A stretch of DNA of 34,998 bases from an uncultured Ktedonobacterales bacterium (GCA_964416775.1 CAYQFU010000007.1:1420-36417), one strand, 5' to 3'; shown: positions 1 to 27,135, counted from the first letter of the stretch. A program made the numbers and translations. The notes: a model not told the origin generated them from the sequence alone.

Positions 1-108
1 ACGCCGATCGGCAACAGTGCCGTCCTGGCCGTCGCCTGGTGCGCTGGCCTCACCCTGGTCGGATTCCTGTGGGCGCGAGCAGTCTACAACCACGATCCCG
101 TACGGTAG
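1..108 (+). CDS. ABC-2 type transporter permease, 3' end (partial)
   Basis: Frame 1 reads TPIGNSAVLAVAWCAGLTLVGFLWARAVYNHDPVR*, resembling the last TM helix of DrrB-like ABC-2 permeases; TAG at 106-108. Confidence 0.7.
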   Translation, partial: TPIGNSAVLAVAWCAGLTLVGFLWARAVYNHDPVR

Positions 109-179
109 GCAAGTGGAACGGGCCGCAGGTCGCAGCCAGGTGCAGCGCCTGAGTGAACCGCGTAGGTGCATCAGGTGGG

Positions 180-611
180 TCAGGACGGCCGGCGGTGCGT
201 GCCGTCGGGGTGCTGGTGGCGTCGCCAAAACTCATCAGGTGTCGCCACGATCACCCCCAGGCGATCGCGGTACCGCAGCAGGTGGTCGTCGTTGGAGATC
301 AGCGTGGCACCGGCGGCGTGGGCCAGGGCGGCAAACTTGCGGTCATCCGGATCCGGGATCTCCGCGAACTGCTCGGGATAGGTTGCGTCGGCGAAGCGGT
401 CCAAGGGATGGAAGAGGTCCGCAATGGCGTGTGTGCGGAGGGGCGGGATTTGCCGCACGATCCGTTCGGTCTCCCGGCGGGTGGCATCGTTCCACACCAT
501 CCGTAGCTGGCCCCGCTTCACGGCATCCACAATCCGCGCGGATGCGCTGCGGGGGTTGAACCCGGCCGCGACAAAGACATTCGTATCCAACACCACAGGC
601 GGCGCTGGCAT
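180..611 (-). CDS. PIN-domain protein (putative TA toxin / ribonuclease)
   Basis: N-terminal VVLDTNVFVAA, later DPDDRKFAALA and LISNDDHLL (PIN acidic motifs); AAGGAG RBS upstream. Confidence 0.85.
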   Translation of the reverse strand: MPAPPVVLDTNVFVAAGFNPRSASARIVDAVKRGQLRMVWNDATRRETERIVRQIPPLRTHAIADLFHPLDRFADATYPEQFAEIPDPDDRKFAALAHAAGATLISNDDHLLRYRDRLGVIVATPDEFWRRHQHPDGTHRRPS

Positions 612-935
612 GCGACCGCTCCTTCTGCAACTGCCACTCCCTCGGGCTATGCGACTATTCTATCGCCCGGACCAGCGGCAAGACGCGCACCGCCGAACTC
701 ACCTCGAACGGTTCAGGAGAGCATGTTACTCACAGCCGCGTTCCACGTACATATGAAGCGAGTGGCGTCTCATCCTGGCATGACACTTGCCCGGTGAGAG
801 AGCCAAAAACGCAGGCCCATCTTCTGAAGCCGCGCTTCGTCAGCGCCAGACGTGCGGCACTGATGGTCTGCCCGTGGGCAATGCTGCCAGCAAGTGAACC
901 GGCATCTCCAGTGCCGGATGCGAGTAGCCACCGCT

Positions 936-1655
936 ATGAATCGCGAGTATCATCGCTGGCTCAGCCCATCCCTCGGGCGGGATATGGAGCTTCTGGTCTT
1001 CGGCCACGCGGGCGCTCGGGTGCTCGCCTTTCCCACGTCGCAGGGACGCTTCTACCAGTGGGAAGACTTCGGCATGGTCGGCGCCCTGCGCGAGCACCTG
1101 GACCGGGGCTGGATCCAGCTGTTCTGCGTGGACAGCGTGGACAGTGAAAGCTGGTACGCGCGACACCTGGCGCCTGAGGATCGCGCCCGCCGGAATACGC
1201 AGTACGACCGCTACCTCGAGGTCGAGGTGCTGCCATTCACGGCCGGCCGCAATGCCAACCCGTTCTTGATCACAACCGGGCCGAGCTTCGGCGCCTATCA
1301 TGCCGTCAACTTCGCCTTCCGCCATCCGCAGCTCGTCAATCGAGTCATCGGCATGAGCGGGATCTATGACATCAGCCGCTTCGCCGGTGGCCGTACAGAC
1401 GGCGAGATCTACTTCCACAACCCCTGCGCCTACATGGCCGGCGAACAGGACCCAGAACGGCTAGCAGCCCTGCGCCGCCAGGATATCATCCTGGCCGTCG
1501 GGCGTACCGATCAGGCGAGCGCCAGTAACGAACAGCTCTCCGGGCTCCTCTGGAGCAAAGACATCTGGCATGCCCTGCGCATGTGGGACGGCTGGGCGCA
1601 CGATTGGCAGTACTGGCAGCGCATGATCCAGCTCTACATCGGCGGCCACGATTAA
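936..1655 (+). CDS. Alpha/beta-hydrolase, esterase family
   Basis: MNREYHRWLSPSLGRDMELLVFGHAG start; nucleophile elbow GPSFG; C-terminal AHDW catalytic His. Confidence 0.85.
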   Translation: MNREYHRWLSPSLGRDMELLVFGHAGARVLAFPTSQGRFYQWEDFGMVGALREHLDRGWIQLFCVDSVDSESWYARHLAPEDRARRNTQYDRYLEVEVLPFTAGRNANPFLITTGPSFGAYHAVNFAFRHPQLVNRVIGMSGIYDISRFAGGRTDGEIYFHNPCAYMAGEQDPERLAALRRQDIILAVGRTDQASASNEQLSGLLWSKDIWHALRMWDGWAHDWQYWQRMIQLYIGGHD

Positions 1656-1697
1656 CGCAGCCGAGCAGGCAGACAGGCAGAGAGTGAGGGCGCACCC

Positions 1698-2678
1698 ATG
1701 ACGGCGAAGGTAGGACTGATCGTCGGACGAGAGTGGTCGTTTCCTCCCGCGTTTATCGAGGAGGTCAATCGGCGAGACGAGGGTGTGGTGGCCGAATATG
1801 CCCAGCTGGGCGGCACACGCATGGACGAGCCCTGCCCGTACGCCGTACTCATCGACCGCATCTCACATGAGGTGCCCTATTACCGGTCCTACTTGAAATA
1901 CGCCGTGCTGCAGGGCGTAACGGTGGTCAATAATCCGTTCATGTGGACGGCAGATGACAAGTTCTTCGAGGCGGCGCTGGCGACCAAGCTGGGCGTGGCC
2001 AGCCCGAAGACGGTCGTCCTGCCGAACAAAGACTACGTGCCAGGGATCATCCATCCGGACAGCCTGCGCAACCTGATCTACCCCATCGACTGGCAGGGCA
2101 TCGTCGACTATGTTGGCCTACCGTGCATCTTGAAGGATGCCCATGGCGGCGGCTGGAAGGAGGTCCACGTCTGCCGCACGCTGGACGAGCTGCTCGAACG
2201 GTACAACCAGTCAGGACTGCTGACGATGATCGTCCAGGAATACATCGAGTGGGAACATTTCGTCCGCTGCATCTGTCTGGGCCAGGAGGAAGTCCTGCCC
2301 ATCAAATACGATCCGCGCGCGCGCACTTATCATGTCGAGCATCAGCATCTGACGCCAGAGCTGGGCGCGCGCATCGTGGCGGGCTCGCTCAAGCTCGTCC
2401 GCGCGCTGGGCTACGACATGAACTCCATCGAGTGGGCCATCCGCGACGGCATCCCCTATGCCATCGACTTCATGAATCCCGCTCCGGACATGGACATCAA
2501 CTCGTTGACCCCTGTCTACTTCGACTGGGCCGTCAAACACATGGCAGATATGGCGATTCGGCTGGCCAAGCATCCACGCCCCCAGCTGCAGGAGCTGCGC
2601 TGGGCAAGCGTCCTGACGGCTGGGCGGCACGATGAGACGCCATCAGCCAGTCCGGTGGAGGCGAGCACAGCGCCGTGA
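1698..2678 (+). CDS. RimK/glutathione-synthetase-like ATP-grasp ligase
   Basis: DDKFF, ILKDAHGGGWKEV, IVQEYI and AIDFMNPAP ATP-grasp motifs; GAGGG RBS. Confidence 0.85.
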   Translation: MTAKVGLIVGREWSFPPAFIEEVNRRDEGVVAEYAQLGGTRMDEPCPYAVLIDRISHEVPYYRSYLKYAVLQGVTVVNNPFMWTADDKFFEAALATKLGVASPKTVVLPNKDYVPGIIHPDSLRNLIYPIDWQGIVDYVGLPCILKDAHGGGWKEVHVCRTLDELLERYNQSGLLTMIVQEYIEWEHFVRCICLGQEEVLPIKYDPRARTYHVEHQHLTPELGARIVAGSLKLVRALGYDMNSIEWAIRDGIPYAIDFMNPAPDMDINSLTPVYFDWAVKHMADMAIRLAKHPRPQLQELRWASVLTAGRHDETPSASPVEASTAP

Positions 2679-2744
2679 CGGACCGGATTCGTACCACTCC
2701 CATTCGATGATCGTGGCTTGTCTGCCCGCCGCTGGAGGTACACC

Positions 2745-4109
2745 ATGACTGGCCTGGGGGACGCGATCGAAACGTATCATGGGCTGCTGAGTGATCAGTT
2801 GGCGGCCGACAGTTGGGCGCAGCTCAACGAGCAACAGCAGCGGCGCGGACTGCGGTTTGGAGAGCGACCGCTGTGCACCGTGCTGCGCCCGCGCTTTATG
2901 TCCCCCGAGCAGTATCGGTTCCTGCAGCGACGCGTCGCGATCGTGTTGGGCGCGCTGGCCAAGGTGCACCGTCGCGCCATGGCCGATCCCGCCTTCCGCG
3001 CGCCATTTGGCCTGTGCGAGTGGGAGGAGGCGCTCATCCAGGTGGATCGCGGGTTCCACGCCCCCAGCCCCACGTCGCGGCTGGACACGTTTCTGCTCCC
3101 CGACCGCGACGACTTCGCCATCACCGAGTACAACGCCGAGACGCCCGCCGCCCAAGCGTACAATGACGTGCTCTCGGACGTGTTCGTCACACTGCCCGTG
3201 ATGCGCGCGTTTCTGCGTCGCTACCAGGCGCGTCCGCTGCTCGCGCGCTATCGGCTGCTGAACGCGCTGTTAGATAGCTTCCAGGAGTGGTCGGGGCAGT
3301 CGCATCATGCCCCATCCATTGCGATCCTCGACTGGCGTGAGGTGCCCACCTACAGCGAGCATCTCCTCTTCCAGGACTATTTCCGGTCGCATGGCCTGCG
3401 GTGCATCACGGCCGACCCTCGCGAGGTGGAATACCGGGACGGGCGGCTGGTAGCGGGCGACTTCCACATCACCCTGATCTACAAGCGCGTGCTCCTTAGC
3501 GAGCTCATCGACCGGGGCGGGCTGGACCACCCTGTGGTCCGCGCGGTCCGCGATGGGGCCGTCTGTATGGTCAATCCCTTCGCGTGCAAGATTCTGCACA
3601 AGAAGGCGAGCCTGGGCGTGCTCAGCGATGAGCGTAATGCCGAGCTCTTCACGGCCGAGGAGCGCCAGGCGATTGCCCAGCACGTTCCCTGGACGCGACG
3701 GGTGGAGGAACGCTGGACGCGCTTTGGGGACCAGACGATCGACCTGATGCCCTTCATCCTGGAGCAGCGCGAGCGCCTGGTGCTGAAAGCCAACGACGAA
3801 TATGGCGGCAAAGGCATCGTGCTGGGCTGGCTAACGGCACCCGCGGACTGGGAGCGCGCCGCACGGACAGCCCTTGCCGAGCCCTTCGTCGTGCAGGAGC
3901 GCATCACCATCCCGAGCGAAGCGTATCCGAGTCTGCGCGACGGCCGGTTGGAGCTGCATGAGCGCATCATGGATACGGCACCATTCATCTATGACGGCGT
4001 TGTTATGGACGGCTGCCTGACGCGCCTCTCGACGGACCCGTTGGTGAACGTGACGGCGGGTGGAGGCTCGACGGTGCCGACGTTTGTGGTGGAGCCGCTC
4101 GAGCGGTAA
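2745..4109 (+). CDS. Circularly permuted ATP-grasp ligase (type 2-like)
   Basis: SRLD...EYNAETPA precede VLKANDEYGGKGIVLG, VVQER and VNVTAGG (permuted motif order); GGAGG RBS before ATG 2745. Confidence 0.8.
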   Translation: MTGLGDAIETYHGLLSDQLAADSWAQLNEQQQRRGLRFGERPLCTVLRPRFMSPEQYRFLQRRVAIVLGALAKVHRRAMADPAFRAPFGLCEWEEALIQVDRGFHAPSPTSRLDTFLLPDRDDFAITEYNAETPAAQAYNDVLSDVFVTLPVMRAFLRRYQARPLLARYRLLNALLDSFQEWSGQSHHAPSIAILDWREVPTYSEHLLFQDYFRSHGLRCITADPREVEYRDGRLVAGDFHITLIYKRVLLSELIDRGGLDHPVVRAVRDGAVCMVNPFACKILHKKASLGVLSDERNAELFTAEERQAIAQHVPWTRRVEERWTRFGDQTIDLMPFILEQRERLVLKANDEYGGKGIVLGWLTAPADWERAARTALAEPFVVQERITIPSEAYPSLRDGRLELHERIMDTAPFIYDGVVMDGCLTRLSTDPLVNVTAGGGSTVPTFVVEPLER

Positions 4110-4208
4110 TGACGGCATCGAGAGCGCGCGCAACCCGAGCAGCGCGCACGACACACCCCGCTATAGACCGCGGAACGCGTTCGACATCGTGGGAAGCAGG
4201 TGACAAGC

Positions 4209-5321
4209 ATGAACGCCCCAACGCTGACGATCGGCATCGAGGAAGAGTATCAGATCATCGATCCGGAGACGCGGGAGCTGCGCTCGTACATCACGGAGAT
4301 GCTGCAGGAGGGCGAGCTCGTCCTGCACGAGCAGATCAAGCCCGAGCTGCACCAATCCATGGTCGAGGTCGGCAGCCATGTGTGTCAAACGCCGGCAGAG
4401 CTGCGTGCGGAGCTCGTGCGCTTGCGCCGGACGCTCATGGAGCTGGCGGCAAAGCAAGGCTTGAAGATCGTGGCCGCGGGCACGCATCCCTTTTCCTCCT
4501 GGCTCAAGCAGGAGATCACGCCGTACGAGCGCTATCTGGGCGTGCGCAAAGACATGCAGCAGCTCGCCGAGCAGCTGCTCATCTTCGGTACCCACGTCCA
4601 TATCGGCATCGAGGATCGCGAGTTCTTGATCGACGTGATGAACGTCGCGCGCTACATGCTGCCGCACCTGCTCTGCCTCTCCTCCAGCTCCCCATTCTGG
4701 ATGGGACGGGACACCGGCCTGAAGTCATACCGCAGCGTCATCTGGCGTAACTTTCCCCGGACGGGCATCCCGCGCGTATTCGACTCCTGGGCGGACCTAT
4801 CGGGGCTGGTCGATATGATGGTGGTGACGAACTGTATCCAGGATGGCACCAAGCTCTGGTGGGACCTGCGCCCGAATTGGAAATTCCCCACGCTGGAGTT
4901 CCGCATCTGCGATGTCTGCACGCGTGTGGACGAGGCCGTCTGTCTGGTCGCGATCCTGCAGGCCATCGTCGCCAAGCTCTGGAAGCTGCGACGCGATAAC
5001 CTCACGTTTCGCGTGTACCCGACTGATTGGATCGAAGAGAACAAGTGGCGCGCCGTGCGGTTCGGCCTCGACGGCAAGCTCATCGATTTCGGCAAGCGGG
5101 AGGAGCTGCCCACGCGAGACCTCATCCGCGAGCTGATCGAGTGGTTCCTGGATGACGTGCTGGACGACCTGGGCAGCCGGCAGGAGGTCGCGTACGCCTA
5201 CCGCATCCTGGACGAGGGCTCCAGCGCTGACCGCCAGCTCGCGACGTTCCGGCGCACGGGCAATCTCAGCGACGTGGTGGACCAGCTCATCCGCGAAACC
5301 GCCGAGGGCCTGGAAGCGTGA
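4209..5321 (+). CDS. ybdK: Carboxylate-amine ligase, GCS2/YbdK family (glutamate-cysteine ligase 2-like)
   Basis: TIGIEEEYQ, AAGTHPF, FGTHVHIG, WWDLRP, TLEFRICD, ENKWRAVRFGLDG. Alternative GTG start at 4200. Confidence 0.9.
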   Translation: MNAPTLTIGIEEEYQIIDPETRELRSYITEMLQEGELVLHEQIKPELHQSMVEVGSHVCQTPAELRAELVRLRRTLMELAAKQGLKIVAAGTHPFSSWLKQEITPYERYLGVRKDMQQLAEQLLIFGTHVHIGIEDREFLIDVMNVARYMLPHLLCLSSSSPFWMGRDTGLKSYRSVIWRNFPRTGIPRVFDSWADLSGLVDMMVVTNCIQDGTKLWWDLRPNWKFPTLEFRICDVCTRVDEAVCLVAILQAIVAKLWKLRRDNLTFRVYPTDWIEENKWRAVRFGLDGKLIDFGKREELPTRDLIRELIEWFLDDVLDDLGSRQEVAYAYRILDEGSSADRQLATFRRTGNLSDVVDQLIRETAEGLEA

Positions 5322-5408
5322 ATCCGGCGACCTCAAGTCCCGCTCGCCGCGCGCGACGTAAGCAGCCGCGGTGGCGGTCTGTCGCCTACGCGTAGTACTA
5401 AGCTAACG

Positions 5409-5912
5409 GTGTATGTTATGTTGTTCCTAAGCCTCCTCTTCTGGGGATTTCTGGCGTCATTCGTCATTCACATCCTCGACGAGGCGCTGCTCAACGGCGG
5501 GTTTGTGCAGTGGATCGTAGACAACTTCTGGCCTACCTATCGCATGCGGATGTTCTTTTGGTTCAACGCCGCGGCGATTGGAGCGATCGCGGTCAGCAAC
5601 ATTCTCTTTGACAGTTTCGGCGGCCACTGGGTCATCCTGCCACTGATCTGGGTGGCAGGATTCGTCACCCACGCTCTGACCGTCCACGTGTATTGGACGA
5701 TGCGTCGCAACACCTACTCGCCGGGCTTGCTCACGAGCCTCCTCTATGTAATCGTCTTCTACCTCGTGATCCGATATGGCGTCGGCCGCCATCTCATTAC
5801 CGGTGCGGATTTCGCGATCGGGACGACGGTGGGCGTTGTGACGGTGGGGACGTTCTTGACCATGGGGCCGACCGTGCTCTTCCCCAGGCTTACACGTCAG
5901 CGTCGCTCGTGA
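5409..5912 (+). CDS. HXXEE-family membrane protein
   Basis: About 5 hydrophobic segments, HILDE (HxxEE variant) and YSPGLLTS motif; start may be 5418. Confidence 0.7.
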   Translation: MYVMLFLSLLFWGFLASFVIHILDEALLNGGFVQWIVDNFWPTYRMRMFFWFNAAAIGAIAVSNILFDSFGGHWVILPLIWVAGFVTHALTVHVYWTMRRNTYSPGLLTSLLYVIVFYLVIRYGVGRHLITGADFAIGTTVGVVTVGTFLTMGPTVLFPRLTRQRRS

Positions 5913-6115
5913 TACAGCAGCAAATGGGAGCATCCTCAGCGCATGCCGCAGTCACGCCGCCGCCATTCTGCCGAGCTCCAACCACATAGGTTAGCGGCTC
6001 TCGCTTGGCGCAATCCCAGGAATCCTGGGCAACTGCTGCTTGAGTAGTCGGCGTGCCACGGTCTGGGTGCGGACGCGAGGCTGAAGCTAGCCTCGCCCGC
6101 TCGCTTGTGTCTGTC

Positions 6116-6124
6116 TGCTAGACT
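6116..6124 (+). promoter_or_regulatory. Candidate extended -10 (TGCTAGACT)
   Basis: TGn-TAnnnT about 50 nt before the esterase start; the same TGCTAnnnT pattern recurs at 16085 and 26884. Confidence 0.35.
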
Positions 6125-6176
6125 GATATGGAGAGGATGCGGGGTCGACGTGTGGGCGGGGTGTGAAGGAGGAGGA

Positions 6177-7226
6177 GTGCACACGAATCTGGTTGAACGT
6201 GCGTTGCGCGAGGGCACACCACTACTCGATGGCGAAATGGCCACATTTGTCTGGTCCGGTGATTGGGCTCCACGACTGATCGGCGATTTCAACCGCTGGG
6301 GGGCGGAGCCGGCGCTCGAGCTGCGTCCGGTGGCGCCGGGCCTCTGGGCACGCACCCTCTCGTTGCCGCGCGATGCCTACATCGAGTATGCCTATACACA
6401 GGATGGCGGGCGCCTGTCCGATCCCTTCAATCCGCGCAACGTCGGCAATGGTCTGGGCGCCCGCAATCACTACTTCTTCATGCCGGATGCCGCTCCAGCG
6501 CCCTGGATCGGCCGTGAGCGCGGCCGGACGCATGGCAGGCTGACACGGCATGTCGTGCACGCCGACCACGTCATGGTGGGTGGCGAGCGCATGGTGTACC
6601 TGTATCGTCCGCCCGTCTCCGGTCAGTATCCGTTGCTGATCGTGCTGGACGGCCCGGACTATTTGCGGCGCGCTCGGCTGGCACGGATGGTGGACACCCT
6701 GATCGCGCACGGGCGCATCCGTCCCCTGGCGCTGGCCATGGTGGCCAATGGCGGTCAGGCGCGCTACGTCGAATATGCCAGCAATGACAGCACGGTCGCG
6801 TTCCTGCTCAGTTGTGTCCTGCCGCTGGCGCGCGAGCGGCTGAACCTGCTCGACCTGGCCGCCCACCCAGGGGCACACGGCCTGCTCGGGGCGTCGATGG
6901 GCGGGCTCGGCGCGCTCTACACGGCGCTGCGCGCCCCTGAGGTGTTTGGGCATGCCATCAGCCAGTCCGGAGCATTCGCCCTCGGTGCCCTGGGGAAAGA
7001 TCCGGTCGTCTTCGACCTCATTCGTCACACGCCGCGCCAGCCGGTAAAGGTATGGATGGACGTCGGCACCTACGAGCAGCTGCTCCCGGCCAACCGGCGT
7101 ATGCATGCGCTGCTGCGTGAGCGGGGCTACGACGTCACGTACCGAGAATATCACGGTGGACACAACTACTCGGCGTGGCGCGATGACGTGTGGCGCGGTC
7201 TGGAAGCCGTGTACGGCGCAGGCTGA
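6177..7226 (+). CDS. Fes/enterochelin-esterase-like hydrolase with N-terminal E-set (CBM48-like) domain
   Basis: LIGDFNRW...EYAY...DPFNP N-domain; LDGPDY, GASMGG nucleophile, SQSGAF, GGHNY; GTG start after AAGGAGGA. Confidence 0.85.
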   Translation: MHTNLVERALREGTPLLDGEMATFVWSGDWAPRLIGDFNRWGAEPALELRPVAPGLWARTLSLPRDAYIEYAYTQDGGRLSDPFNPRNVGNGLGARNHYFFMPDAAPAPWIGRERGRTHGRLTRHVVHADHVMVGGERMVYLYRPPVSGQYPLLIVLDGPDYLRRARLARMVDTLIAHGRIRPLALAMVANGGQARYVEYASNDSTVAFLLSCVLPLARERLNLLDLAAHPGAHGLLGASMGGLGALYTALRAPEVFGHAISQSGAFALGALGKDPVVFDLIRHTPRQPVKVWMDVGTYEQLLPANRRMHALLRERGYDVTYREYHGGHNYSAWRDDVWRGLEAVYGAG

Positions 7227-7362
7227 GCGCCCATCCGATGGCTTATGGGCATGAGAGCATCGCCGGGCGTCACCAACCGATGCGGCATGTGGCATCCTTG
7301 GACCGTCCGACTGGTATACGCGGTCGAGCCCGGTCCTGCCTTGTGCTCCAATGGACAGCCGC

Positions 7363-8613
7363 TCACGCCTGATCGGCGGCAGCGGCGCCTCCGCCGGACG
7401 TGTCACGGAAGACGGAGAGGTCGGTGGCAGGCGGCAAGCTCGCAAAGAAGTCGGCCGCGAAGCGGCGGCTGTAGTCGTCGAGCAACGCCTGGATACGCTC
7501 AGGATCCTGGGCTGCCAGCACAAAGCCCGCGTGCTGGCGCCGGTCCAGTCGATGGACGATCTCGGGATCCTGGTAGGCTGACGTGTCGGGATACTCCTGC
7601 CGCGCGAGCGTGATGATGACGCCGCCGTACTGGTCTCGGCGCGCCGGTAGGTGATATGCGTCGTCGGGTTGCGCAAGCTCGATCCTGGCCCATTCGCGCC
7701 ACAGGTTGATGCCGGTCGCGGCTTCGACCATCTCGGCGATATTCGCCCCGCCGACGCGAGCCCCAACTTCGAGAAAGTACATGCGGCCGTCCTCGCGGCC
7801 CTTGATGAATTCCATGTGGGCCGCCCCGTGGTCCATCCCCAATGCCTGGATGACCCGCTGGCAGAGCTCTTTCAGCGTGCGCTCGTCTTCGGAGCCGCGC
7901 GGCAGGGTGCGGGTGATGGCGATGCCGCCTTCGTGGAAGACGTCCAGGGGCGGGCGGCCGTACTGATGGGCCTCCGCGAAGATGACCGCCCCCTCGACGA
8001 TCAGCGCGTCGACGTGGTACACGCCGCCTGGGATGTAGCGCTCTAGCAGATGGAAGGATTGCCGGTCGCCTAGCTCGTCGAGGCGCGGCCAGAGCTCGTC
8101 TTGAGAGCTGATCCTGGTGATGCCGACCGTGGAGGCCTCGCCGCGCGGCTTGAGCACCCACGGTGCGGGCACGCGTGCCATGAACTCCTTGATCTCATCA
8201 TAGTTGACGACGCGGACGAAGTCCGGCACCGGAATGCCGGCTTCTCTGGCCTGGACACGCATCGCCAACTTGTCGTGAACGTAGCGCGCGGCGCTCGCGC
8301 CCATGCCGGGCATGCGCAGATGCTCCCGCAGGGCCGCCGCGGTCTCCACATCCGAGTCGTCCAGCGCCACGATGTGGTCGATGGCGCGCGTGCGGGCCAG
8401 ATAGCTGACGGCGCGAATGACCTCGTCCACGCGATGCAGGTCCGGCATATAGAACAGCTCGTCGATGCTCTCCCGAGGCCAGGCCGCATGCTCCAGGGCG
8501 ACCACGGTCAGCAGGATCACATGAGCGCCCTCGCGTTTGCATTCGCGGATGAACTCATGGCCCTTCTCGAAACTGGCGAGGCATAGCACGGTGCGCGGCG
8601 GGCGCGTCTCCAT
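7363..8613 (-). CDS. ATP-grasp domain ligase (L-amino-acid ligase/carboxylase-like)
   Basis: HDKLAMR, WVLKPR, LERYIPG, HMEF, FLEVGARVGG; AGGAG RBS. Confidence 0.85.
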   Translation of the reverse strand: METRPPRTVLCLASFEKGHEFIRECKREGAHVILLTVVALEHAAWPRESIDELFYMPDLHRVDEVIRAVSYLARTRAIDHIVALDDSDVETAAALREHLRMPGMGASAARYVHDKLAMRVQAREAGIPVPDFVRVVNYDEIKEFMARVPAPWVLKPRGEASTVGITRISSQDELWPRLDELGDRQSFHLLERYIPGGVYHVDALIVEGAVIFAEAHQYGRPPLDVFHEGGIAITRTLPRGSEDERTLKELCQRVIQALGMDHGAAHMEFIKGREDGRMYFLEVGARVGGANIAEMVEAATGINLWREWARIELAQPDDAYHLPARRDQYGGVIITLARQEYPDTSAYQDPEIVHRLDRRQHAGFVLAAQDPERIQALLDDYSRRFAADFFASLPPATDLSVFRDTSGGGAAAADQA

Positions 8614-8663
8614 GGTCGAGCTCCTGACGCTGCTGAACGAGGAAACGTCCTCGGGGCAGTCCT

Positions 8664-8680
8664 ATTGTACCCCTGGTACA
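8664..8680 (-). promoter_or_regulatory. -10 TACAAT overlapped by palindrome TGTACC-N3-GGTACA
   Basis: TACAAT (minus strand, 8669-8664) about 50 nt upstream of the ATP-grasp ATG; perfect 6-bp inverted repeat at 8666-8680. Confidence 0.35.
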
Positions 8681-8721
8681 TCCGACACCGCCGCCTCAGC
8701 GTGAGCATGTGAGGCAGGCAG

Positions 8722-10116
8722 TCAGTCACTCCAGGCTGGAGCATGAGTGCCAAGCGGGATCGACGGCAGGTCCCAGTGAGGGGGTGTCTCGCTCATGCGT
8801 GCCGCATGGCGCACGGCGAGCAGGCGTCCCCAACCGCTTGGGGATTCCTCCAGGAGATCGGCCATCTCCTGGATCGTTGGGTCGGCACAGGCGAATCCAT
8901 GCTCCACGCGTCCCAATGCGCGCAGCCAGCGGCCCGTCCGCGCGAGTGAGACCTGCGCGTGCCAGCTGCCTCCTTCTGTGGCGCGGCGGAAGAGGGCGGC
9001 CAGCGCGCCAAGCGCCATCAGATAGCCCGAAGCGTGATCCAGCGCCTGGCAGGGTAGCGGCTTCGGCTCAGTCGTCCCAGCCGCGAGCGCCTCGGCATCG
9101 TTCAAGCCGCTGGTGGTTTGCACGATGGAGTCGAAGCCGCGACGAGCCGCCCACGGCCCGCGCTGGCCGTACGCGGTGAGCGAGACGTAGACGATGCCCG
9201 GTCGCAGTGCCGCCGCCTCGTCTGGGCCGAAGCCATGCGACGCGAGGGCGCCGGGGCGGTAGGACTGAACGAAGATGTCGGCGCCGGCGAGGAGCCGGGC
9301 GAGCGTCTGCCGGCCATCCGCTGCGCGCAAGTCTACGAACGTCGCGCGCTTGCCACGCCCGGTGTCGACGACGAGCGGCTCCAGCGAGGGCAGATGCGCC
9401 GCACTGACGACCAATACGTCCGCGCCGTGGGCCGCCAGGACGCGACCGCAGACGGGGCCGGCCACGACGCGTGTGAGATCGAGCACGCGCATGCCTGAGA
9501 GCGGGCGGTCGGCGCCGTCAGGCAACGGACGCGGCGGTGCATCGCCAATTCTGGTCAGCGCGACCACAGGCAATGCCGCGACGCTGCGCCCCTGAGGGTG
9601 CGCGTCCCACTCCGCAACGGATCGCATCATGGCCGCGACCAGACCGGCCTTCGCCGCGGCGTGCTCGAAGGCCTGCGCGTCCCAGGTACGCAATGCGCTG
9701 GCAACCGAATCGCGACTGTGCTCGCAGCCGAGCAGGCGGAGGATGCCGTCGCGGTGGTGCGGAAAGTTGGCGTGAATGCGGACCCAGCGACCGTCTCCGC
9801 ACTGGTAGGCGCCCGTGATGGGGTCCCACACGTCGAGCGATGGCCCGCCGTTCACCCGCAGGTAGCGCTCGCTGCGGAATTCGGCGGCGGCATGGCGCAT
9901 GTCCACGCTGACGCGCTGGAGTCGTCCGGTACGCGACTGCCAGATGGCGTTGGCAGCGCAGGCAACGGCGGCAATGGAGACTTGCGCCGCCGTGCCGACA
10001 CGGAACGACGAGGGCAATGCTGGATCGCGGCCGGGAAGCTCGATCTGGTCGAGCGGCTCAGTAGGCAGCCCGACGAGGTTCCACAGATCGGCGAGAATTG
10101 CATGTGCGCTGTTCAG
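8722..10116 (-). CDS. CoA-transferase family III (CaiB/BaiF), probable CTG start
   Basis: RPLSGMRVLDLTRVVAGPVCGRVLAAHGADV, DTGRGKR, YRPGAL, RRGFDSIVQ. Frame extends 33 codons above TTG 10017 to a CTG preceded by AGAGGAGGAG. Confidence 0.85.
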   Translation of the reverse strand: MNSAHAILADLWNLVGLPTEPLDQIELPGRDPALPSSFRVGTAAQVSIAAVACAANAIWQSRTGRLQRVSVDMRHAAAEFRSERYLRVNGGPSLDVWDPITGAYQCGDGRWVRIHANFPHHRDGILRLLGCEHSRDSVASALRTWDAQAFEHAAAKAGLVAAMMRSVAEWDAHPQGRSVAALPVVALTRIGDAPPRPLPDGADRPLSGMRVLDLTRVVAGPVCGRVLAAHGADVLVVSAAHLPSLEPLVVDTGRGKRATFVDLRAADGRQTLARLLAGADIFVQSYRPGALASHGFGPDEAAALRPGIVYVSLTAYGQRGPWAARRGFDSIVQTTSGLNDAEALAAGTTEPKPLPCQALDHASGYLMALGALAALFRRATEGGSWHAQVSLARTGRWLRALGRVEHGFACADPTIQEMADLLEESPSGWGRLLAVRHAARMSETPPHWDLPSIPLGTHAPAWSD

Positions 10117-10254
10117 GGCTCCTCCTCTCGCTCCTGCTCATTGGACAAGGTGAGCCAGGGGACACCACACCAGCCCGCGCCGGCTCCCCCGCATGGGAAC
10201 CTTGCGAACACGCCCGCGGATCAGGCCAGCGAGCCAGAATTCCACGACGCTGGG

Positions 10255-10608
10255 CTAACGTGACTGGGATTGTCGCTCGCGCCAACCACTCGAAGCGGGG
10301 AGCACCACGCGAGTTGGGGTGAAGGTCCAGGCGTCGCCATGCTGCGCGAGCTGCCCGTAGAACAGCACGTAGCGCTCATTCGCCACCTGCGGATCGTAGC
10401 GCAGCAGAGTCAGCGATGTCTGACTCTCACTATGGGCGGAGCTGGCCGGTGGGTGCCGCGGGGCGGGGAGGGTGTAGCGGTGCTCCGTCCGATCGAAGCT
10501 GAAGGGCAGCGGGAGTGTGACCGGGTAGCCGTCGCGGCCCACATAGCTGAGCGCGGCGCGGCTGAAGGAGTCGATTTGTCCCAAGAGGTCAGCCGTCCAG
10601 TCGATCAT
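10255..10608 (-). CDS. Small divergent split-barrel (PNPOx-like) protein
   Basis: MIDWTADLLGQIDSFSRAALSYVGRDGYP, resembling the PNPOx 'L(S/A)xxxxDGxP' motif; ATGA overlap with upstream stop; GGAGG RBS. Confidence 0.6.
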   Translation of the reverse strand: MIDWTADLLGQIDSFSRAALSYVGRDGYPVTLPLPFSFDRTEHRYTLPAPRHPPASSAHSESQTSLTLLRYDPQVANERYVLFYGQLAQHGDAWTFTPTRVVLPASSGWRERQSQSR

Positions 10609-11102
10609 GGGTTCACCTCCACGACTTCTGGAGCGCTCTGCATGTCGCCTGCCGGCCAGCCCACCAAGCGCACCGGTCGGACACGGATGATCGCGCGCTG
10701 GACGTATCCAGGCATCACCTGGCGCATCCTGGCGAGGTTTTCGCGCGAGGGAGGGTGGCGCCGTGCCCAGCCGGCGAAGTAGCGCTTCCATCCATTCTCG
10801 GGATCGGAATCGTCTATCTCCGCCTGGCCCTGCACCAGCAAGACGTGCGGCGGCTCGGCCTTGCCTGCGCCAACGGGCGAGAAGAGCAGCGCCACCTTGG
10901 GCTGGCGGCGGATGTTCGCGACGCGCTTCATTGCCATGGGCGAGGAGACGATCAGTGTCCCGGTATCGGGGTCGAAATGATTGAGAATCACCGGGAGGGC
11001 AACGGGAGTGCCGCGTTCCGTCATGCTGGTGAACTGACAGGTAGACGACTCTTCGATGGCGTGATACATCCAATCGGGCAGGAGCTGGATGCGCTGTACC
11101 AT
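10605..11102 (-). CDS. Pyridoxamine 5'-phosphate oxidase-like (flavin/F420 split-barrel) protein
   Basis: FTSMTERGTP, KRVANIRRQPKVALLF, LLVQGQAEI, IIRVRPVRL. Confidence 0.8.
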   Translation of the reverse strand: MVQRIQLLPDWMYHAIEESSTCQFTSMTERGTPVALPVILNHFDPDTGTLIVSSPMAMKRVANIRRQPKVALLFSPVGAGKAEPPHVLLVQGQAEIDDSDPENGWKRYFAGWARRHPPSRENLARMRQVMPGYVQRAIIRVRPVRLVGWPAGDMQSAPEVVEVNP

Positions 11103-11224
11103 GCGTATCGCACCTTTCGCACCGGTGCATCAATCGAGGGGCCTTTGATTGCACAGGCACAACCGAAGGCACACGCCACTCGCCGCGTGACCGGATTGCT
11201 GCTACGGCGTATGTCAGGAGTATG

Positions 11225-12091
11225 TCACACGTGCGCGAGCTTGTCCGGGTTGGCGATGATGCGAACGCTGCGGATCCGCTGCGCCTCCACTTCGATGGTG
11301 ATGACGAGGTAGGCGCGTTCTTCGCCGCGAATGACGATGGCCGGCTCGCGATTGACGTCCTCCACCTCGACGCGAGAGCCCGGGGGCAAGAAGCGCCGGG
11401 TGGCACCAATGCTGAAGCGGGCCACGGCGAGACTGCCAGATACGGGGCGTGTGGCCGCTCCCTTGACCTTGCCGCCGCCATCGGCCCACAGGGTCACGTC
11501 CGCGCTCAGGATGTCCATCAGCGCGGCCATGTCGCCGCCCTGGGACGCGCGCGCGAAGCTGAGGAGCATCTGTCGATGGCTCTCGGGAGAGGCGGGGAAG
11601 CGGGGGCGATGCTCGCCGAGATGCTTCCTGGCGCGGCTGAACGCCTGGCGGCAGGCCATCTCGGACTTGCCGAGGAAGGTGGCGATCTCCGTGTAGTCGT
11701 AGTCGAAGACTTCGCGCAGCAGGAAGACGGCGCGCTCGAAGGGCTTCAGCTGCTCTAGCAGCACCAGAAACGCCAGTGACACCGACTCCGCTCGGTCGAC
11801 ACGGTCCTCGGGGTTCGCCGTCTCGAGCGCCTCCGCATTGCCGATGGGCTCGGGGAGCCAGGGTCCCAGATAGGTCTCACGCTGGCGCCGCGCCAGGTGG
11901 AGCTGATCCATGCAGAGGCGCGTGAGGATGGTGGTCAAGAAGGCTTTGGGGGACGCGATGGCTTCTGGTGGCGTCGCCCGGTAGCGCAGGTAGGTCTCCT
12001 GCACCATATCCTCGGCATCCATGGCGGTACCGAGCATGCGATAGGCGATAGAGAAGAGGTACGGCCGGTAGGTTTCGAAGGAGTCTACCAT
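11225..12091 (-). CDS. sigJ: ECF41-type RNA polymerase sigma factor (SigJ-like) with SnoaL-like C-terminal extension
   Basis: AYRMLGTAMDAEDMVQETY, linker YLGPWLPEP, ERAVFLLREVF, WADGGGK and terminal NPDKL, the diagnostic ECF41 motifs. Confidence 0.92.
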   Translation of the reverse strand: MVDSFETYRPYLFSIAYRMLGTAMDAEDMVQETYLRYRATPPEAIASPKAFLTTILTRLCMDQLHLARRQRETYLGPWLPEPIGNAEALETANPEDRVDRAESVSLAFLVLLEQLKPFERAVFLLREVFDYDYTEIATFLGKSEMACRQAFSRARKHLGEHRPRFPASPESHRQMLLSFARASQGGDMAALMDILSADVTLWADGGGKVKGAATRPVSGSLAVARFSIGATRRFLPPGSRVEVEDVNREPAIVIRGEERAYLVITIEVEAQRIRSVRIIANPDKLAHV

Positions 12092-16319: not shown

Positions 16320-18083
16320 ATGAACGCGCAGCTCGTACGGCACGTGGCAGCTGTCCGTGGCGCACTGCTGGTCACGGTCACACTGGGTATCCTCAGCACA
16401 GGGGCAATGTTGGCGCAGATGGGGCTGCTCAGCAGCATCGTGAGCCGCGTCTTCCTAGATCGGGCAGGTCTGCCCGCGGTCTGGCCGGCGCTCGTGCTGC
16501 TGCTGGGCGCGGGCGTGGCGCGGGCGATACTCAACGGCGGGCGCGAGGTTGCTGCCCAGCGGGCGGCAGTGCGCGTCAAGTCCGCGATGCGAGCGCAGCT
16601 CTTCGCGCATCTCTTGCGGCTCGGTCCCGCGCACAGCCGCGACGGCGGAACAGGAGAGCTGGTTACGACGGCGGTCGAGGGCATCGAGCGCCTCGACGCG
16701 TACGTCAGCCGGTACCTGCCGCAGATGGCCCTGAGCGTGCTCATACCGCTCACCATCGCCGGCGTGCTGATACCCATCGACCTCACCAGCGCGGCGCTGT
16801 TGCTGTGCACGGCGCCGATCATCCCCTTGCTCATGGTCGTGGTGGGCACTCATGCCGAGCAGCACATCCAGCGCCAGTGGACCGCGCTCACGCGCCTGGG
16901 AGCGTACTTCCTCGACGCGGTGCAAGGGTTGCCTACGCTCCAGCTCTATGGGCGCGCGGAGGCGGAAAGCGACCGCGTCGGGCGCGTCAGCGAGCGCTTT
17001 CGCGAGCGGACGCTGAGCGTGCTGCGCATGGCCTTCCTCTCTGGTCTGGTGCTCGAGTTCTTGACGCTCGGCGCCATCGGCGTGGTCGCCGTGACGCTGG
17101 GGGTGCGCCTGCTCGACGGCAACATCAGCTTCGCACGCGCGTTCTTCGTGCTGCTGGTGACGCCCGAGTTCTACCGGCCGCTGCGCGATCTGGGTGTCCA
17201 GCGCCATGCCGGCATGGAAGGCAAAGTCGCGATGGACCAGATCGGCGCGATACTCGCACTGACGCCGCCGGTCGCCGACCACGCATCCATGGACGGTGTG
17301 GCCGCACCGACGGCACAGCAGCAAGCGCCGCTCACGATCCGGCTGTGCGACGTGACCTACACGTACCCCGGCAGCGATCACCCCGCACTGGACGGCATCA
17401 CCCTCACGCTGCAGCCGGGAACACGGACCGCGGTGGTGGGACGCAGCGGGGCAGGCAAGAGCACGCTCATCGACCTGCTCCTGCGGTTCCGCGACGTCCA
17501 GGGCGGCACGATCACGGTCAATGATCTCCCGCTGGAGCAGTTGCCGCCAGAGGTCTGGCGCGAACAGGTGGCGCTCGTGCCCCAGCGGCCGTACCTGTTT
17601 GCCGGCAGCGTGCGGGAGAACCTGCTGCTTGCCCGGCCGGACGCGGCCGACGCGGAGCTGCTGCGGGCGTGCGAGCTTGCCGGACTGGCGGACGTCGTCG
17701 CGGGGCTGCCGCACGGACTCGACACGCCGCTTGGCGAGCGGAGCACCGGCGTGAGCGCTGGACAGGCGCAGCGGTTGGCCATCGCCCGCGCTTTCCTCAA
17801 AGATAGTCCGTTGCTGATCCTCGACGAGCCAACGTCGAGTCTGGATCCCGAAAGTGAGGCGCTGATCCGGAGGGCGCTGGGGGTGCTGATGCAGGGAAGG
17901 ACGGTGCTCGTGGTGGCTCACCGGCTGAATACGGTGATAGCGGCGGAGCAAATCGTCGTCCTCGAGCGAGGTCGCATCGCCGAGGTCGGCACGCACGCCG
18001 ACCTGTTGCGACGCGGCGGGGCATACGCGCGGCTCATCGAAGCGGGGAGCCGCAGCGGCACGGCGGTGGAGGTGCCTGGATGA
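16320..18083 (+). CDS. cydD: Thiol reductant/heme ABC exporter subunit CydD
   Basis: LDAYVSRYLPQ, VLRMAFLSGLVLEF, PEFYRPLRDLG, Walker A GRSGAGKS, VSAGQAQR, LILDEPT. Confidence 0.92.
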   Translation: MNAQLVRHVAAVRGALLVTVTLGILSTGAMLAQMGLLSSIVSRVFLDRAGLPAVWPALVLLLGAGVARAILNGGREVAAQRAAVRVKSAMRAQLFAHLLRLGPAHSRDGGTGELVTTAVEGIERLDAYVSRYLPQMALSVLIPLTIAGVLIPIDLTSAALLLCTAPIIPLLMVVVGTHAEQHIQRQWTALTRLGAYFLDAVQGLPTLQLYGRAEAESDRVGRVSERFRERTLSVLRMAFLSGLVLEFLTLGAIGVVAVTLGVRLLDGNISFARAFFVLLVTPEFYRPLRDLGVQRHAGMEGKVAMDQIGAILALTPPVADHASMDGVAAPTAQQQAPLTIRLCDVTYTYPGSDHPALDGITLTLQPGTRTAVVGRSGAGKSTLIDLLLRFRDVQGGTITVNDLPLEQLPPEVWREQVALVPQRPYLFAGSVRENLLLARPDAADAELLRACELAGLADVVAGLPHGLDTPLGERSTGVSAGQAQRLAIARAFLKDSPLLILDEPTSSLDPESEALIRRALGVLMQGRTVLVVAHRLNTVIAAEQIVVLERGRIAEVGTHADLLRRGGAYARLIEAGSRSGTAVEVPG

Positions 18084-19885
18084 GCACATTGGCCACTCTG
18101 CTGCGCTGGCTCATGCCGTTCCGCTGGCAAGTAGCGCTCGCCGCGGTGCTCGGCGCCATCATGATCGCATGCAACATCGGGCTGCTCGGCATGGCAGCGT
18201 ACCTGATCGCCGACGCGGCGCTGCGGCCGCTCCTGTTGACCCTCACCTTGCCAATCTATCTGGTGCGTTTCGCCGGCGTGGCCCGGGCGGGCGCACGTTA
18301 CGCGGAGCGCCTGGTCGGCCACAACGTCACCTTTCGCCTGCTAGCACGGCTGCGCGCCCAGGTCTATCGCCGGCTGGCGCGCATGGCGCCGGGGCAACTG
18401 CTGGCCTATCGCAGCGGCGACCTGCTGGCGCGCCTGGTCGCGGACGTCGACGAGCTGCAGCACATCTATCTGCGCGTTGTGGGGCCGTTCCTCGTGGCCG
18501 GGCTCATCGCGCTGTTGACTTCAGGCGTGCTGGCAGTCTTCAGTCCGGTGCTGGCCTGGGCGGCGCTCGCGTTCCTGGGAATCGCGGGGATCGGTATCCC
18601 GCTGCTGGCGGGGCGACTCGGCCGCCACCTGGGAGAGCAACAGCCCGCGGCGCGAGCCGAGCTCAATACGCAGCTCGTGGATGGTATTCAGGGCGTGCGA
18701 GACATCCTCGCGTTCGGACGGGAGCATGACTACCAGGAGCACATCCGCGCCCGGGATGGTGTGCTGGCGCAGCTGCAGCGGAGAATGGCGCTCGTCAGCG
18801 GACTGGAGCAGGGGCTCAACGAGGTCACACAGTCAGTCGCGGTGTGGACGGTGCTTGTGCTGGCCATTCCGCTGGTTCGCGACCAGCGCATCGGCGGTGT
18901 GTACCTGGCCTTCCTGGCGTTGGTGATGCTGGCAAGCTTCGAGGCCGTGCAGCCCCTGGCGCCGGCGCTGCAGCACCTCGGTCGCGCCCTGACCTCGGGG
19001 CAGCGCGTACGGGCCGTTCTGGAGGCTGCGCCGGGGCTGGTGGAGAGCGGAGAGACGTTCTCGGCGCTCGCCAGCCATGAGGAGGCTCAGCATGCTGAGC
19101 CGAGGGGGGATCATGCGCCAGAGCTGGCGTTCGAGGACGTATCCTTCACGTACGCCGCTGAGGACCGGCCCGCCCTGACGGACATCAGCTTCACGGTGCC
19201 TTCCGGCGGGCGGATCGCCATCGTGGGACCAAGCGGTGCCGGCAAGAGCACGCTCGCGCGCCTGGCGCTGCGGCTGGAGGACCGCACCAGCGGTACCATC
19301 CGCCTCGACGGCGACGATATCCGCCACTGCGCGTTTCGCGACCTGCGGGCGCGGATCGGCCTCGTCGCCCAGGATAGCCACATGTTCAACACGACTCTGC
19401 GGGCAAACCTGCAAGTGGCCAGGCCAAACGCGGCGGATGAAGAGTTGATCGAGGCACTGGAACTGGCACAACTCGGCGAGTGGGTGCGAGAGCTCCCCGA
19501 CGGACTGGGCACCTGGATCGGCGAGCAAGGGCAGCGGCTCTCGGGCGGCGAGCGCCAGCGAGTCGCGCTGGCCCGCGCACTCCTCTATGACGCCCCACTG
19601 CTGCTGCTGGATGAGCCAACCGCCAACCTGGATACCATTACCGAACGCGCGTTGCTGGATGCCATCGAGCCTGTCATGTGCCAGCGCACGACGGTCGTGA
19701 TTACGCATCGGTTGTGCCGCATGGAGCGGATGGATGAGATCGTCGTGTTGGATGGGGGTCGGATCGTCGAGCGAGGCACGCACGTGCAGCTCCTCGCGGC
19801 GGACGGACTGTATCGGCGCATGTTCGATCTCCAGAGCGGCATGCTGACACTAGACGCAGACCAGACGGAGGCCACGCATGGATGA
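18080..19885 (+). CDS. cydC: Thiol reductant/heme ABC exporter subunit CydC
   Basis: RYAERLVGHNVTFRLLARLR, GDLLARLVADVDELQ, GPSGAGKS, LSGGERQR; ATGA overlap with cydD. Confidence 0.92.
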   Translation: MSTLATLLRWLMPFRWQVALAAVLGAIMIACNIGLLGMAAYLIADAALRPLLLTLTLPIYLVRFAGVARAGARYAERLVGHNVTFRLLARLRAQVYRRLARMAPGQLLAYRSGDLLARLVADVDELQHIYLRVVGPFLVAGLIALLTSGVLAVFSPVLAWAALAFLGIAGIGIPLLAGRLGRHLGEQQPAARAELNTQLVDGIQGVRDILAFGREHDYQEHIRARDGVLAQLQRRMALVSGLEQGLNEVTQSVAVWTVLVLAIPLVRDQRIGGVYLAFLALVMLASFEAVQPLAPALQHLGRALTSGQRVRAVLEAAPGLVESGETFSALASHEEAQHAEPRGDHAPELAFEDVSFTYAAEDRPALTDISFTVPSGGRIAIVGPSGAGKSTLARLALRLEDRTSGTIRLDGDDIRHCAFRDLRARIGLVAQDSHMFNTTLRANLQVARPNAADEELIEALELAQLGEWVRELPDGLGTWIGEQGQRLSGGERQRVALARALLYDAPLLLLDEPTANLDTITERALLDAIEPVMCQRTTVVITHRLCRMERMDEIVVLDGGRIVERGTHVQLLAADGLYRRMFDLQSGMLTLDADQTEATHG

Positions 19886-21260: not shown

Positions 21261-21358
21261 TGAGCCCAGTTACGAGCACCGTCGTGGCGGCAGAGGCACT
21301 TGAGCAGATCTGCCTCGATCGCGCGACACGGGGAACACGGAAGACAAGGGAGCCTATC

Positions 21359-26629: not shown

Positions 26630-26875
26630 AGAACCCGGCACCTTTCATCTGCCACAGATGCGCTACACACCTCTCATTTGCCCGCGGCCACGTGTGACAG
26701 ACGTAGGGGCACCGCCGATGTGACCAAGGTACGTGGTTGACGGTTGGCCAGCGCCAGCGGCCAGCGTGGGCGGCCAAGTCGAGCGTCCGTGCCACAAAGT
26801 GTTCCGCATGTTCAGCCCCAAGGCGATGCGGCCTGTCTCGAGTGGGTGGATTCTGGCCGCACTTGACTGTAAGCC

Positions 26876-26884
26876 AGTGTAGCA
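26876..26884 (-). promoter_or_regulatory. Candidate extended -10 (TGCTACACT)
   Basis: TGn-TAnnnT on the minus strand in the divergent gap, pointing at the ACT gene. Confidence 0.25.
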
Positions 26885-27135
26885 TGGCGAGGTCTGGCAG
26901 TTCTGTTCGCCAGCGAACAGACGCACGCATGACACGCACGTACACTGCCCTAGAGCACACCCGCCGCATGGTGGGTGCCTGCCGGAGCGCGCGGTTTGAG
27001 GTGGCGCACCGTGGCGGCACACAGCGCGCACGGAGACGACCGCGGTCGGAGACGGGAACGGCCTCTCGCGGCCGCGAAGCGGGTTGCAGTGCGACAGCTG
27101 GGGCAGGCCAGCAAGGAGCAGGGAGCATACAACGT

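Follow-up and report, generated by a model that had tools for sequence, protein, structure and literature searches.

A four-gene operon of three amide-bond ligases and a serine hydrolase, conserved across bacterial phyla, as a candidate route to a small peptide-like metabolite

Iyer, Abhiman, Burroughs and Aravind, in Mol Biosyst in 2009, reportedly predicted small-peptide synthesis for gene neighbourhoods that combine a permuted ATP-grasp ligase with a GCS2-like ligase, an alpha/beta-hydrolase and an amidohydrolase, and the Pfam description of PF14403 (CP_ATPgrasp_2) presumably refers to a neighbourhood with a GCS2-like COOH-NH2 ligase and an alpha/beta-hydrolase. A locus of this kind was analyzed in a 34,998-nucleotide stretch of DNA from an uncultured Ktedonobacterales bacterium (GCA_964416775.1, CAYQFU010000007.1:1420-36417; G000:C7:1420-36417 in our genome set), which is called the window throughout and belongs to a genome bin of 5.65 Mb that is 72% complete. 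Four co-directional genes of the window encode, in order, an esterase-family serine hydrolase (est1), a RimK/LysX/ArgX-like ATP-grasp ligase (the RimK-like ligase), a circularly permuted ATP-grasp ligase (cpAG) and a GCS2/YbdK carboxylate-amine ligase (GCS2); they are followed by genes for an HXXEE-family membrane protein, a second esterase (est2) and a convergently encoded third ATP-grasp protein (AG3) (Table 1). As in the CP_ATPgrasp_2 neighbourhood, the permuted ATP-grasp gene stands by a GCS2-like ligase gene and an alpha/beta-hydrolase gene, with amidohydrolases or peptidases as accessories, and this association recurred among related loci, with GCS2 directly downstream of cpAG in 56 of 65 loci and est1 within 6.5 kb of cpAG, on either strand, in 35 of 40. 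The locus differs from that description in the PF14403 score of cpAG, which was 28.8 bits against a cut-off of 32, and in the constant RimK/LysX-like gene and optional L-amino acid ligase gene counted here. The window is a further member of a predicted but uncharacterised system, and a literature search by titles and abstract openings found no publication on the product of the operon. The present analysis adds counts that separate the core genes from the accessory ones, a modelled fold of cpAG that resembles glutathione synthetases, a modelled fold of the second ligase that resembles ArgX, LysX and RimK, and a negative phyletic test of the thiol pathways.

The conservation of the locus was examined by a scan of one genome per species, which returned at least 599 pattern matches and at least 585 confirmed cpAG relatives. 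The best 80 loci were kept and compared with the window proteins by tblastn, and arrangements were counted only in loci with enough flanking sequence. The RimK-like gene lay directly upstream of cpAG on the same strand in 60 of 63 loci (identity of 63-80%; median, 74), the downstream GCS2 genes specified products with 62-80% identity (median, 73), and est1 was upstream of cpAG on the same strand in 41 of 56 loci (56-71%; median, 62). The RimK-like, cpAG and GCS2 genes were jointly present in 36 of 44 loci, and all four genes were co-directional in 26 of 44. Identities for these genes spanned 56-80% across Chloroflexota, Gemmatimonadota and other phyla, catalytic residues were invariant in the orthologue alignments of all four families, and the record titles indicated that the carriers were mostly soil metagenome-assembled genomes (MAGs). 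All four genes were detected in four of five genomes of the same family or order as the window, the fifth locus being cut by a contig end. Among 10 loci of the phylum sample with distant cpAG homologues (35-55% identity), six had at least three of the core genes and four had all four; of the remaining loci, one had only the RimK-like and cpAG genes and three had cpAG alone. Overall, the clustering of est1 and the RimK-like, cpAG and GCS2 genes is far beyond chance, which does not hold for the HXXEE gene or est2.

All seven genes that the first-pass annotation had recognized between positions 936 and 8613 were found and look catalytically intact. Its expectation that they would keep company in other genomes was borne out across phyla for est1 and the three adjoining ligase genes but not for the genes that follow. 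The HXXEE gene had no tblastn match in the 80 related loci and none in the five close relatives, indicating that it is a bystander outside the conserved system; the region of its product expected to contain the name motif reads H-I-L-D-E, with Asp replacing the first Glu. Matches to est2 were found in 10 of the 80 loci, at only 27-32% identity. Orthologues of AG3 (52-61% identity) adjoined the core in 12 of the 80 loci, and in 10 of these 12, labelled Anaerolineae, Anaerolineales or Chloroflexota, AG3 directly followed GCS2 on the same strand. None of the three genes was beside the core in the five close relatives, of which one alone possessed AG3, on another contig and with neither est2 nor the HXXEE gene beside it. 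Because the four core genes are syntenic across phyla and the HXXEE gene, est2 and AG3 are not, the real unit is a four-gene core (936-5321) to which further modules may be added, and no set of six or seven genes is fixed; AG3 is a facultative accessory ligase. The start of the operon was placed at about position 936, since the gene upstream is a divergent PIN-domain gene.

In order to find recurrent neighbours, all of the open reading frames (ORFs) of the 80 loci were clustered. A peptidase of family C26 directly followed GCS2 in 27 loci, a cluster of 280-amino-acid second esterases lay beside the operon in 23, an S9 prolyl-oligopeptidase-type peptidase was present in 10, and further ATP-grasp paralogues occurred in pairs in six Gemmatimonadales-type loci. 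No transporter or regulator recurred among the 80 loci, an ATP-binding cassette (ABC) ATPase cluster and an ArsR-type cluster being present in just 5 loci each; this is consistent with the earlier argument that the lack of an exporter points to an intracellular product. Likewise, no conserved small ORF recurred with the operon, either as a cluster in the 80 loci or among the ORFs beside the operon in the window, where the small ORFs at 520-960 were unconvincing as a precursor or carrier. An Rfam E-value scan of positions 1-12000 detected no riboswitch or RNA leader, its sole match being a chance microRNA. One candidate partner, a C26 peptidase elsewhere in the genome bin of the window (C129:7549-8190), was rejected, as it is unlinked to the operon and only 38% identical to an operon-linked C26 peptidase.

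Two of the accessory proteins could be classified further. The closest solved relative of AG3 was the L-amino acid ligase RizA (4wd3; E = 5.7e-22, residues 51-313), with further matches to 3vot (E = 2e-11), BacD (E = 1e-8) and Ddl; the PF13535 score above its cut-off and the similarity to characterised ligases place AG3 among the L-amino acid ligases of the ATP-grasp_4 type. The est2 product, with a G-A-S-M-G motif read from the sequence, scored 106 bits with NF007758, below the cut-off of that model. It possibly fills the role of the recurrent second esterase, which in other loci is a distant paralogue.

GCS2 gave the clearest assignment of the core enzymes. Its scores exceeded the cut-offs of PF04107 (21 bits), NF010039 (371 bits) and TIGR02050 (286.5 against 176.4 bits), and it matched the structure of YbdK (PDB 1r8g) with an E value of 1e-39. 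Residues E14-E16, E56, H132, H134, E233 and R235 were invariant in 36 orthologues, and the true start of the gene may be the ATG at 4209. By these sequence comparisons, the gene product is clearly a predicted YbdK-type ligase, and it is the only GCS2 protein that was found in the incomplete genome bin of the window.

The ORF of cpAG has an alternative start at TTG 2718. Among its orthologues, 41 of 42 matched PF14403 at E values of up to 10 (best, 1e-9), many close homologues bear a precomputed PF14403.12 label, and an operon-linked homologue with 46% identity scored 46.2 bits. The family is large, with at least 5374 homologues at an E value of 0.001 or lower among 8000 candidates scored, and the best of those from other phyla were 65-70% identical. 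A structure model built on 42 orthologues (predicted local distance difference test score [pLDDT], 92.5; predicted template modelling score [pTM], 0.90) was compared with solved structures by Foldseek. The top matches were eukaryotic glutathione and homoglutathione synthetases, with template modelling (TM) scores of 0.64-0.70 (human 8fbz, E = 4.7e-16; soybean 3kal, TM 0.70; potato 5oes, 0.67; human 2hgs, 0.67; yeast 1m0w, 0.66), and these were followed by the CP_ATPgrasp_1 protein 3n6x, Escherichia coli YgiC/YjfC, glutathionylspermidine synthetase, the fungal E-64 ligase Cp1B (TM 0.65) and trypanothione synthetase. All of the top matches are of the circularly permuted ATP-grasp type, and this is the fold of cpAG. 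At the profile level, 3n6x alone was significant (E = 4.9e-8), YjfC, YgiC and Cp1B were marginal, and the glutathionylspermidine synthetase profile PF03738 (GSP_synth) touched 19 of the 42 orthologues.

All of the characterised fold neighbours of cpAG are small-molecule ligases that couple an amino acid or polyamine to a carboxylate, either that of a small peptide or that of a dicarboxylic acid. Cp1B ligates epoxysuccinate, a dicarboxylic acid, to an amino acid and is likened by the authors of that study to homoglutathione synthetases (PMC12568646). With glutathionylspermidine synthetase/amidase and the peptide-spermidine ligases YgiC/YjfC, cpAG shares the permuted ATP-grasp fold and weak profile links, and the pairing of a ligase with a hydrolase for the same bond type recalls the glutathionylspermidine system; the operon differs in that its hydrolase is a separate serine esterase-family protein and not a fused Cys amidase, and the TM scores of cpAG with these ligases (0.54-0.60) were below those with the glutathione synthetases. 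Longer forms of cpAG were limited to two proteins with no recurrent fusion, one of them a dehydrogenase fusion in a distant subfamily. The 609-amino-acid protein P0108 was rejected as a cpAG with an added domain, its extra length being an internal N-terminal repeat. Prediction of a complex between cpAG and GCS2 returned a score of 0.00 (mark, 0.32), which counts neither for nor against an interaction.

A cpAG tree of 76 rows contained seven changes of phylum label, against a minimum of six, and had very short deep branches. As the tree mostly tracks phyla, it argues for slow evolution with few transfers and places the operon closer to primary metabolism than to a typical antibiotic cluster. 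In one locus (L065, 4637-7100 and 8283-10746; also in G396:C24), the cpAG-GCS2 pair was present twice, about 3.6 kb apart, and the near-identity of the copies (branch lengths of 0.002 and 0.005) is compatible with a recent tandem duplication or an assembly artefact. Second copies in two other genomes (L092 in G387 and L095 in G277) encode a cpAG paralogue with 35-38% identity that has no operon partners nearby, which suggests that some Chloroflexota genomes employ this ligase family in a second role, likewise uncharacterised.

The RimK-like ligase, which had no match to any Pfam profile and thus none to that of RimK, scored 36.4 bits with TIGR00768 (E = 3.5e-9; cut-off, 143.4) over residues 49-199 only and was also below the TIGR02144 cut-off. 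Lys146 of the ATP site, the GGG loop at 150-152 and Asp257/Asn260 were invariant in 41 sequences. The structure model (pLDDT, 84) was compared with 48,161 representative chains by VIA-align, and the three best matches were ArgX in complex with LysW (3vpb; Z score of 21.9, root mean square deviation of 2.8 over 259 residues), LysX/ArgX (5k2m; 21.9) and RimK (4iwx; 21.8). The next match had a Z score of 19.7, about 2 lower, and led a group that included synapsin and Ddl, with bacterial GshB at 17.9; a Foldseek search with the same model did not separate the ATP-grasp subfamilies. The label RimK-like, as first applied, is therefore appropriate for the fold class but not for membership of the RimK family. 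RimK acts on S6 and LysX/ArgX act on LysW. These enzymes, a poly-alpha-glutamylase and ligases with a carrier protein as substrate, are the best structural matches of the 326-amino-acid protein; the differences are an identity of 16-17%, the failed TIGR00768 and TIGR02144 cut-offs and a genomic context with neither an S6 link nor a LysW-like gene.

The catalytic triad of est1 (Ser117 in G-x-S-F-G, Asp192 and His222) was invariant in 38 orthologues. Its nearest solved relatives by profile were feruloyl-type and other esterase family proteins (5vol; E = 9e-10), with no peptidases among them. S-formylglutathione hydrolase was a marginal profile match, and the ESM Atlas returned only clusters named esterase family protein. 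A peptidase label for est1 was rejected because the solved relatives are esterases of the feruloyl and esterase-D types.

This series of comparisons indicated a core of three ligases and one hydrolase, and we consider that there is about an even chance that the operon product is a small peptide-like metabolite of the cytoplasm, assembled in three consecutive ATP-dependent ligations through acyl-phosphates. Under this scheme, for which we infer the order of the steps and all of the substrates, the YbdK/GCS2 ligase would couple an amine or amino acid to glutamate through its gamma-carboxyl, by the chemistry of gamma-glutamylcysteine synthesis; cpAG would attach another amino acid, or a polyamine, to the C-terminal carboxylate of that product; and the RimK/LysX-like ligase would append one residue, most likely glutamate, at a glutamyl carboxylate. 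The est1 hydrolase may trim, recycle or proofread the final product, either as such or in an S- or O-acylated form. Depending on the lineage, AG3 could supply or add a dipeptide unit, and a C26 gamma-glutamyl hydrolase, the second esterase or an S9 peptidase may take part. The scheme was adopted because GCS2 adjoins a glutathione-synthetase-like fold, because a C26 peptidase often follows GCS2 and because the neighbours of cpAG are small-molecule ligases; the position of the C26 gene directly after GCS2 fits a gamma-glutamyl bond that is made and broken. Taken with GCS2, the modelled fold of cpAG suggests a glutathione-like two-step logic extended by a third ligase. The original proposal of a multi-ligase line for a gamma-glutamyl or thiol-type peptide, independent of nonribosomal peptide synthetases (NRPS), is still the best reading and is strengthened by the cpAG fold; a thiol, a tag and a polymer are no more than candidate products.

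Two groups of described pathways come close to this scheme. Glutathione biosynthesis likewise places a GCS2-family ligase by an ATP-grasp enzyme of the eukaryotic synthetase fold, with both steps proceeding through acyl-phosphates; the operon differs in having no match at the level of PF03917, an obligatory third ligase and hydrolase, and a carrier that also has GshB. Stepwise, NRPS-independent formation of amides from free acids and amines is also the principle of stand-alone ATP-grasp pathways such as those of BacD, RizA, Cp1B (PMC12568646) and, in the thioglutine pathway, the RimK-like TgiB and YbdK-like TgiB-II (PMC13674229). AG3 resembles RizA and BacD, and cpAG resembles Cp1B; in contrast to these pathways, no warhead-forming or sulfoxide-synthase gene accompanies the operon, whose breadth and conservation are more like those of primary metabolism.

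Several observations weigh against a small gamma-glutamyl-type metabolite as the product. The glutathione-like view of cpAG comes solely from the modelled fold, the hidden Markov model (HMM) of eukaryotic glutathione synthetase (PF03917) having matched one of the 42 orthologues, at an E value of 0.29. The three best fold matches of the RimK-like ligase act on protein C termini and not on free metabolites, although a RimK-type fold need not imply a protein substrate, since RimK-like ligases and one YbdK-like ligase of other clusters convert free amino acids to thiohistidine-glutamate dipeptides (PMC13674229). One of five operon-bearing genomes of other phyla, of Rhodothermota type, has a canonical GshB (167 bits), and the operon product is thus not simply a glutathione substitute in that carrier. 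The esterase relatives of est1 leave its part toward an amide product in doubt, and an operon that encodes a hydrolase along with its ligases would, if unregulated, run a futile cycle. The abundance of hydrolases is explained equally well by editing and by a make-and-break cycle, such as that of a storage peptide, an osmolyte peptide or a reversible tag. Lastly, identities of 63-80% across phyla are unusual for secondary metabolism.

A more specific form of the metabolite scheme is that the core operon makes an undescribed low-molecular-weight thiol, or a gamma-glutamyl tri- or tetrapeptide cofactor, with the esterase-D-like est1 as a thioester hydrolase; we regard it as doubtful. GCS2 would then produce gamma-Glu-X, cpAG would attach either a polyamine or a second residue to it, and a glutamate would be contributed by the RimK/LysX-like ligase. 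No GshB, GshA or BshC match was found in the genome bin of the window at its 72% completeness. In a sample of 401 Chloroflexota genomes, cpAG was detected in 79 and GshB (PF02955) exceeded its cut-off in 28, with strong matches in about 11 (at least 44 bits, in frames of 199-402 amino acids), of which G232 alone also had cpAG; BshC (PF10079) was detected in none of the 401. The test is non-discriminating because the phylum is without both known pathways whether the operon is present or not, and the operon neither occurs throughout the phylum nor has a distribution that complements those of the known thiol pathways. For most of the sampled Chloroflexota, the GshB and BshC pathways do not account for the main low-molecular-weight thiol.

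An unlikely alternative is that the operon serves to build up and draw on an oligo- or poly-amino acid that acts as a reserve or protects against stress, similar to cyanophycin or polyglutamate, or an osmolyte peptide. In that case, the RimK-like ligase would polymerize glutamate iteratively, the decoration of carboxylates would fall to cpAG and GCS2, and the hydrolases would free units on demand. Cyanophycin synthetase is paired with cyanophycinase, and the pairing of synthetases with hydrolases here resembles that arrangement; the neighbourhood is unusually rich in hydrolases, counting est1 and the recurrent C26, second esterase and S9 genes, RimK is among the best fold matches of the RimK-like ligase, and the carriers are largely soil MAGs. 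The fold relatives of cpAG and GCS2, however, make single bonds on small substrates, a primer, carrier or granule-associated protein did not recur in the 80 loci, and a domain search of the window found no Mur-ligase-type domain like that of cyanophycin synthetase.

It is quite unlikely that the ligases instead modify a protein or small carrier, at its C terminus or at side-chain carboxylates, with the hydrolases as erasers of a reversible tag. Such a system would account for writers and erasers being encoded together and for the gap of about 2 in Z score that separates the ArgX-LysW, LysX/ArgX and RimK folds from the next match, and the very strong conservation across phyla would suit a conserved protein substrate; yet the operon and its flanks contain no conserved small ORF, LysW-like or otherwise, the two longer cpAG proteins gave no recurrent fusion that hints at a target, and the characterised relatives of cpAG and GCS2 are metabolite ligases.

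The proposal that all seven genes form one dedicated pathway in this organism, with the HXXEE protein as a membrane partner and est2 as a release enzyme, is very unlikely. The genes are contiguous, five of them are co-directional with short gaps, and other lineages also have a second esterase and a third ATP-grasp next to the core, but the absence of the HXXEE gene from every one of the 80 loci, the distant paralogues that are all est2 has and the arrangement in the five close relatives, where the core stands without these genes and AG3 is unlinked in the one that has it, count against it. Least probable is a salvage or catabolic route for environmental esters or peptides, with the esterases releasing a carboxylate or amine that the ligases would conjugate or gamma-glutamylate so that it can be detoxified or assimilated. 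The feruloyl-type relatives of est1 and the likeness of C26 plus a gamma-glutamyl ligase to PuuA/PuuD, the gamma-glutamylation logic for amines, would favour such a route; the three ligases, more than it needs, and the failure of any oxidoreductase, transporter or regulator to recur in the 80 loci speak against it.

Table 1. Core operon genes and neighbouring genes of the window
Gene or product	Position	Strand	Support
PIN_3-domain protein, putative toxin of toxin-antitoxin pair	180-611	-, divergent from operon	domain match
est1, esterase-family Ser hydrolase, 239 aa	936-1655	+	PF00756 31.4 bits, cut-off 22
RimK/LysX/ArgX-like ATP-grasp ligase, 326 aa	1698-2678	+	fold matches; Pfam none
cpAG, circularly permuted ATP-grasp ligase, 454 aa	2745-4109	+	PF14403 28.8 bits; permuted ATP-grasp fold
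GCS2/YbdK carboxylate-amine ligase, 373 aa	4200-5321	+	PF04107 203.7 bits; NF010039 520.9 bits
HXXEE-family membrane protein	5409-5912	+	PF13787 36.2 bits
est2, enterochelin-esterase-like hydrolase, extra N-terminal region	6105-7226	+	PF00756 92.4 bits, cut-off 22
AG3, L-amino-acid-ligase-type ATP-grasp, 416 aa	7363-8613	-, convergent	PF13535 36.9 bits, cut-off 27
Family III CoA-transferase	8722-10017	-	downstream of AG3

Other features of the window were also recorded. The Pfam match of the family III CoA-transferase starts only at residue 173, and the ORF lies in the most GC-rich kilobase of the window (0.708); the true start may lie downstream of the listed TTG, or the protein may have an unexplained N-terminal extension. 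The segment at 16320-22402, at a distance of 8 kb from the operon, encodes two CydDC-like ABC transporters in which membrane and ATPase domains are fused and, after them, subunits I and II of a cytochrome bd oxidase. CydDC of E. coli exports cysteine and glutathione; the linkage of these genes to the operon was not seen in the other loci. Two consecutive ORFs (26737-27426 and 27514-28020) share between them the match to the SDH-type ClpP-like serine protease family (PF01972); they match profile positions 9-86 and 125-280 and may represent a frameshift, a broken gene or an assembly error. A protein of 638 amino acids with a full-length DUF505 match (583 bits) is encoded at 33054-34970.

The window itself adds little beyond one more instance of the operon, save that it shows which neighbours are optional, and no transporter, carrier-protein or precursor-peptide gene recurs by the four short core genes. 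The wider significance lies in the distribution: three ligases and a hydrolase are retained at 56-80% identity in at least 585 species genomes of several phyla with no product assigned to them, which leaves a gap of unusual size in bacterial metabolism. The carriers belong to phyla that abound in soil, Chloroflexota and Gemmatimonadota, and little is known of the redox and stress chemistry of small molecules in these groups. If the operon does make a thiol or gamma-glutamyl cofactor, hundreds of soil species would use this compound, in phyla in which no genes for glutathione synthetase or bacillithiol synthesis were found. The enzymes of the operon would also be new NRPS-independent catalysts of amide-bond formation.

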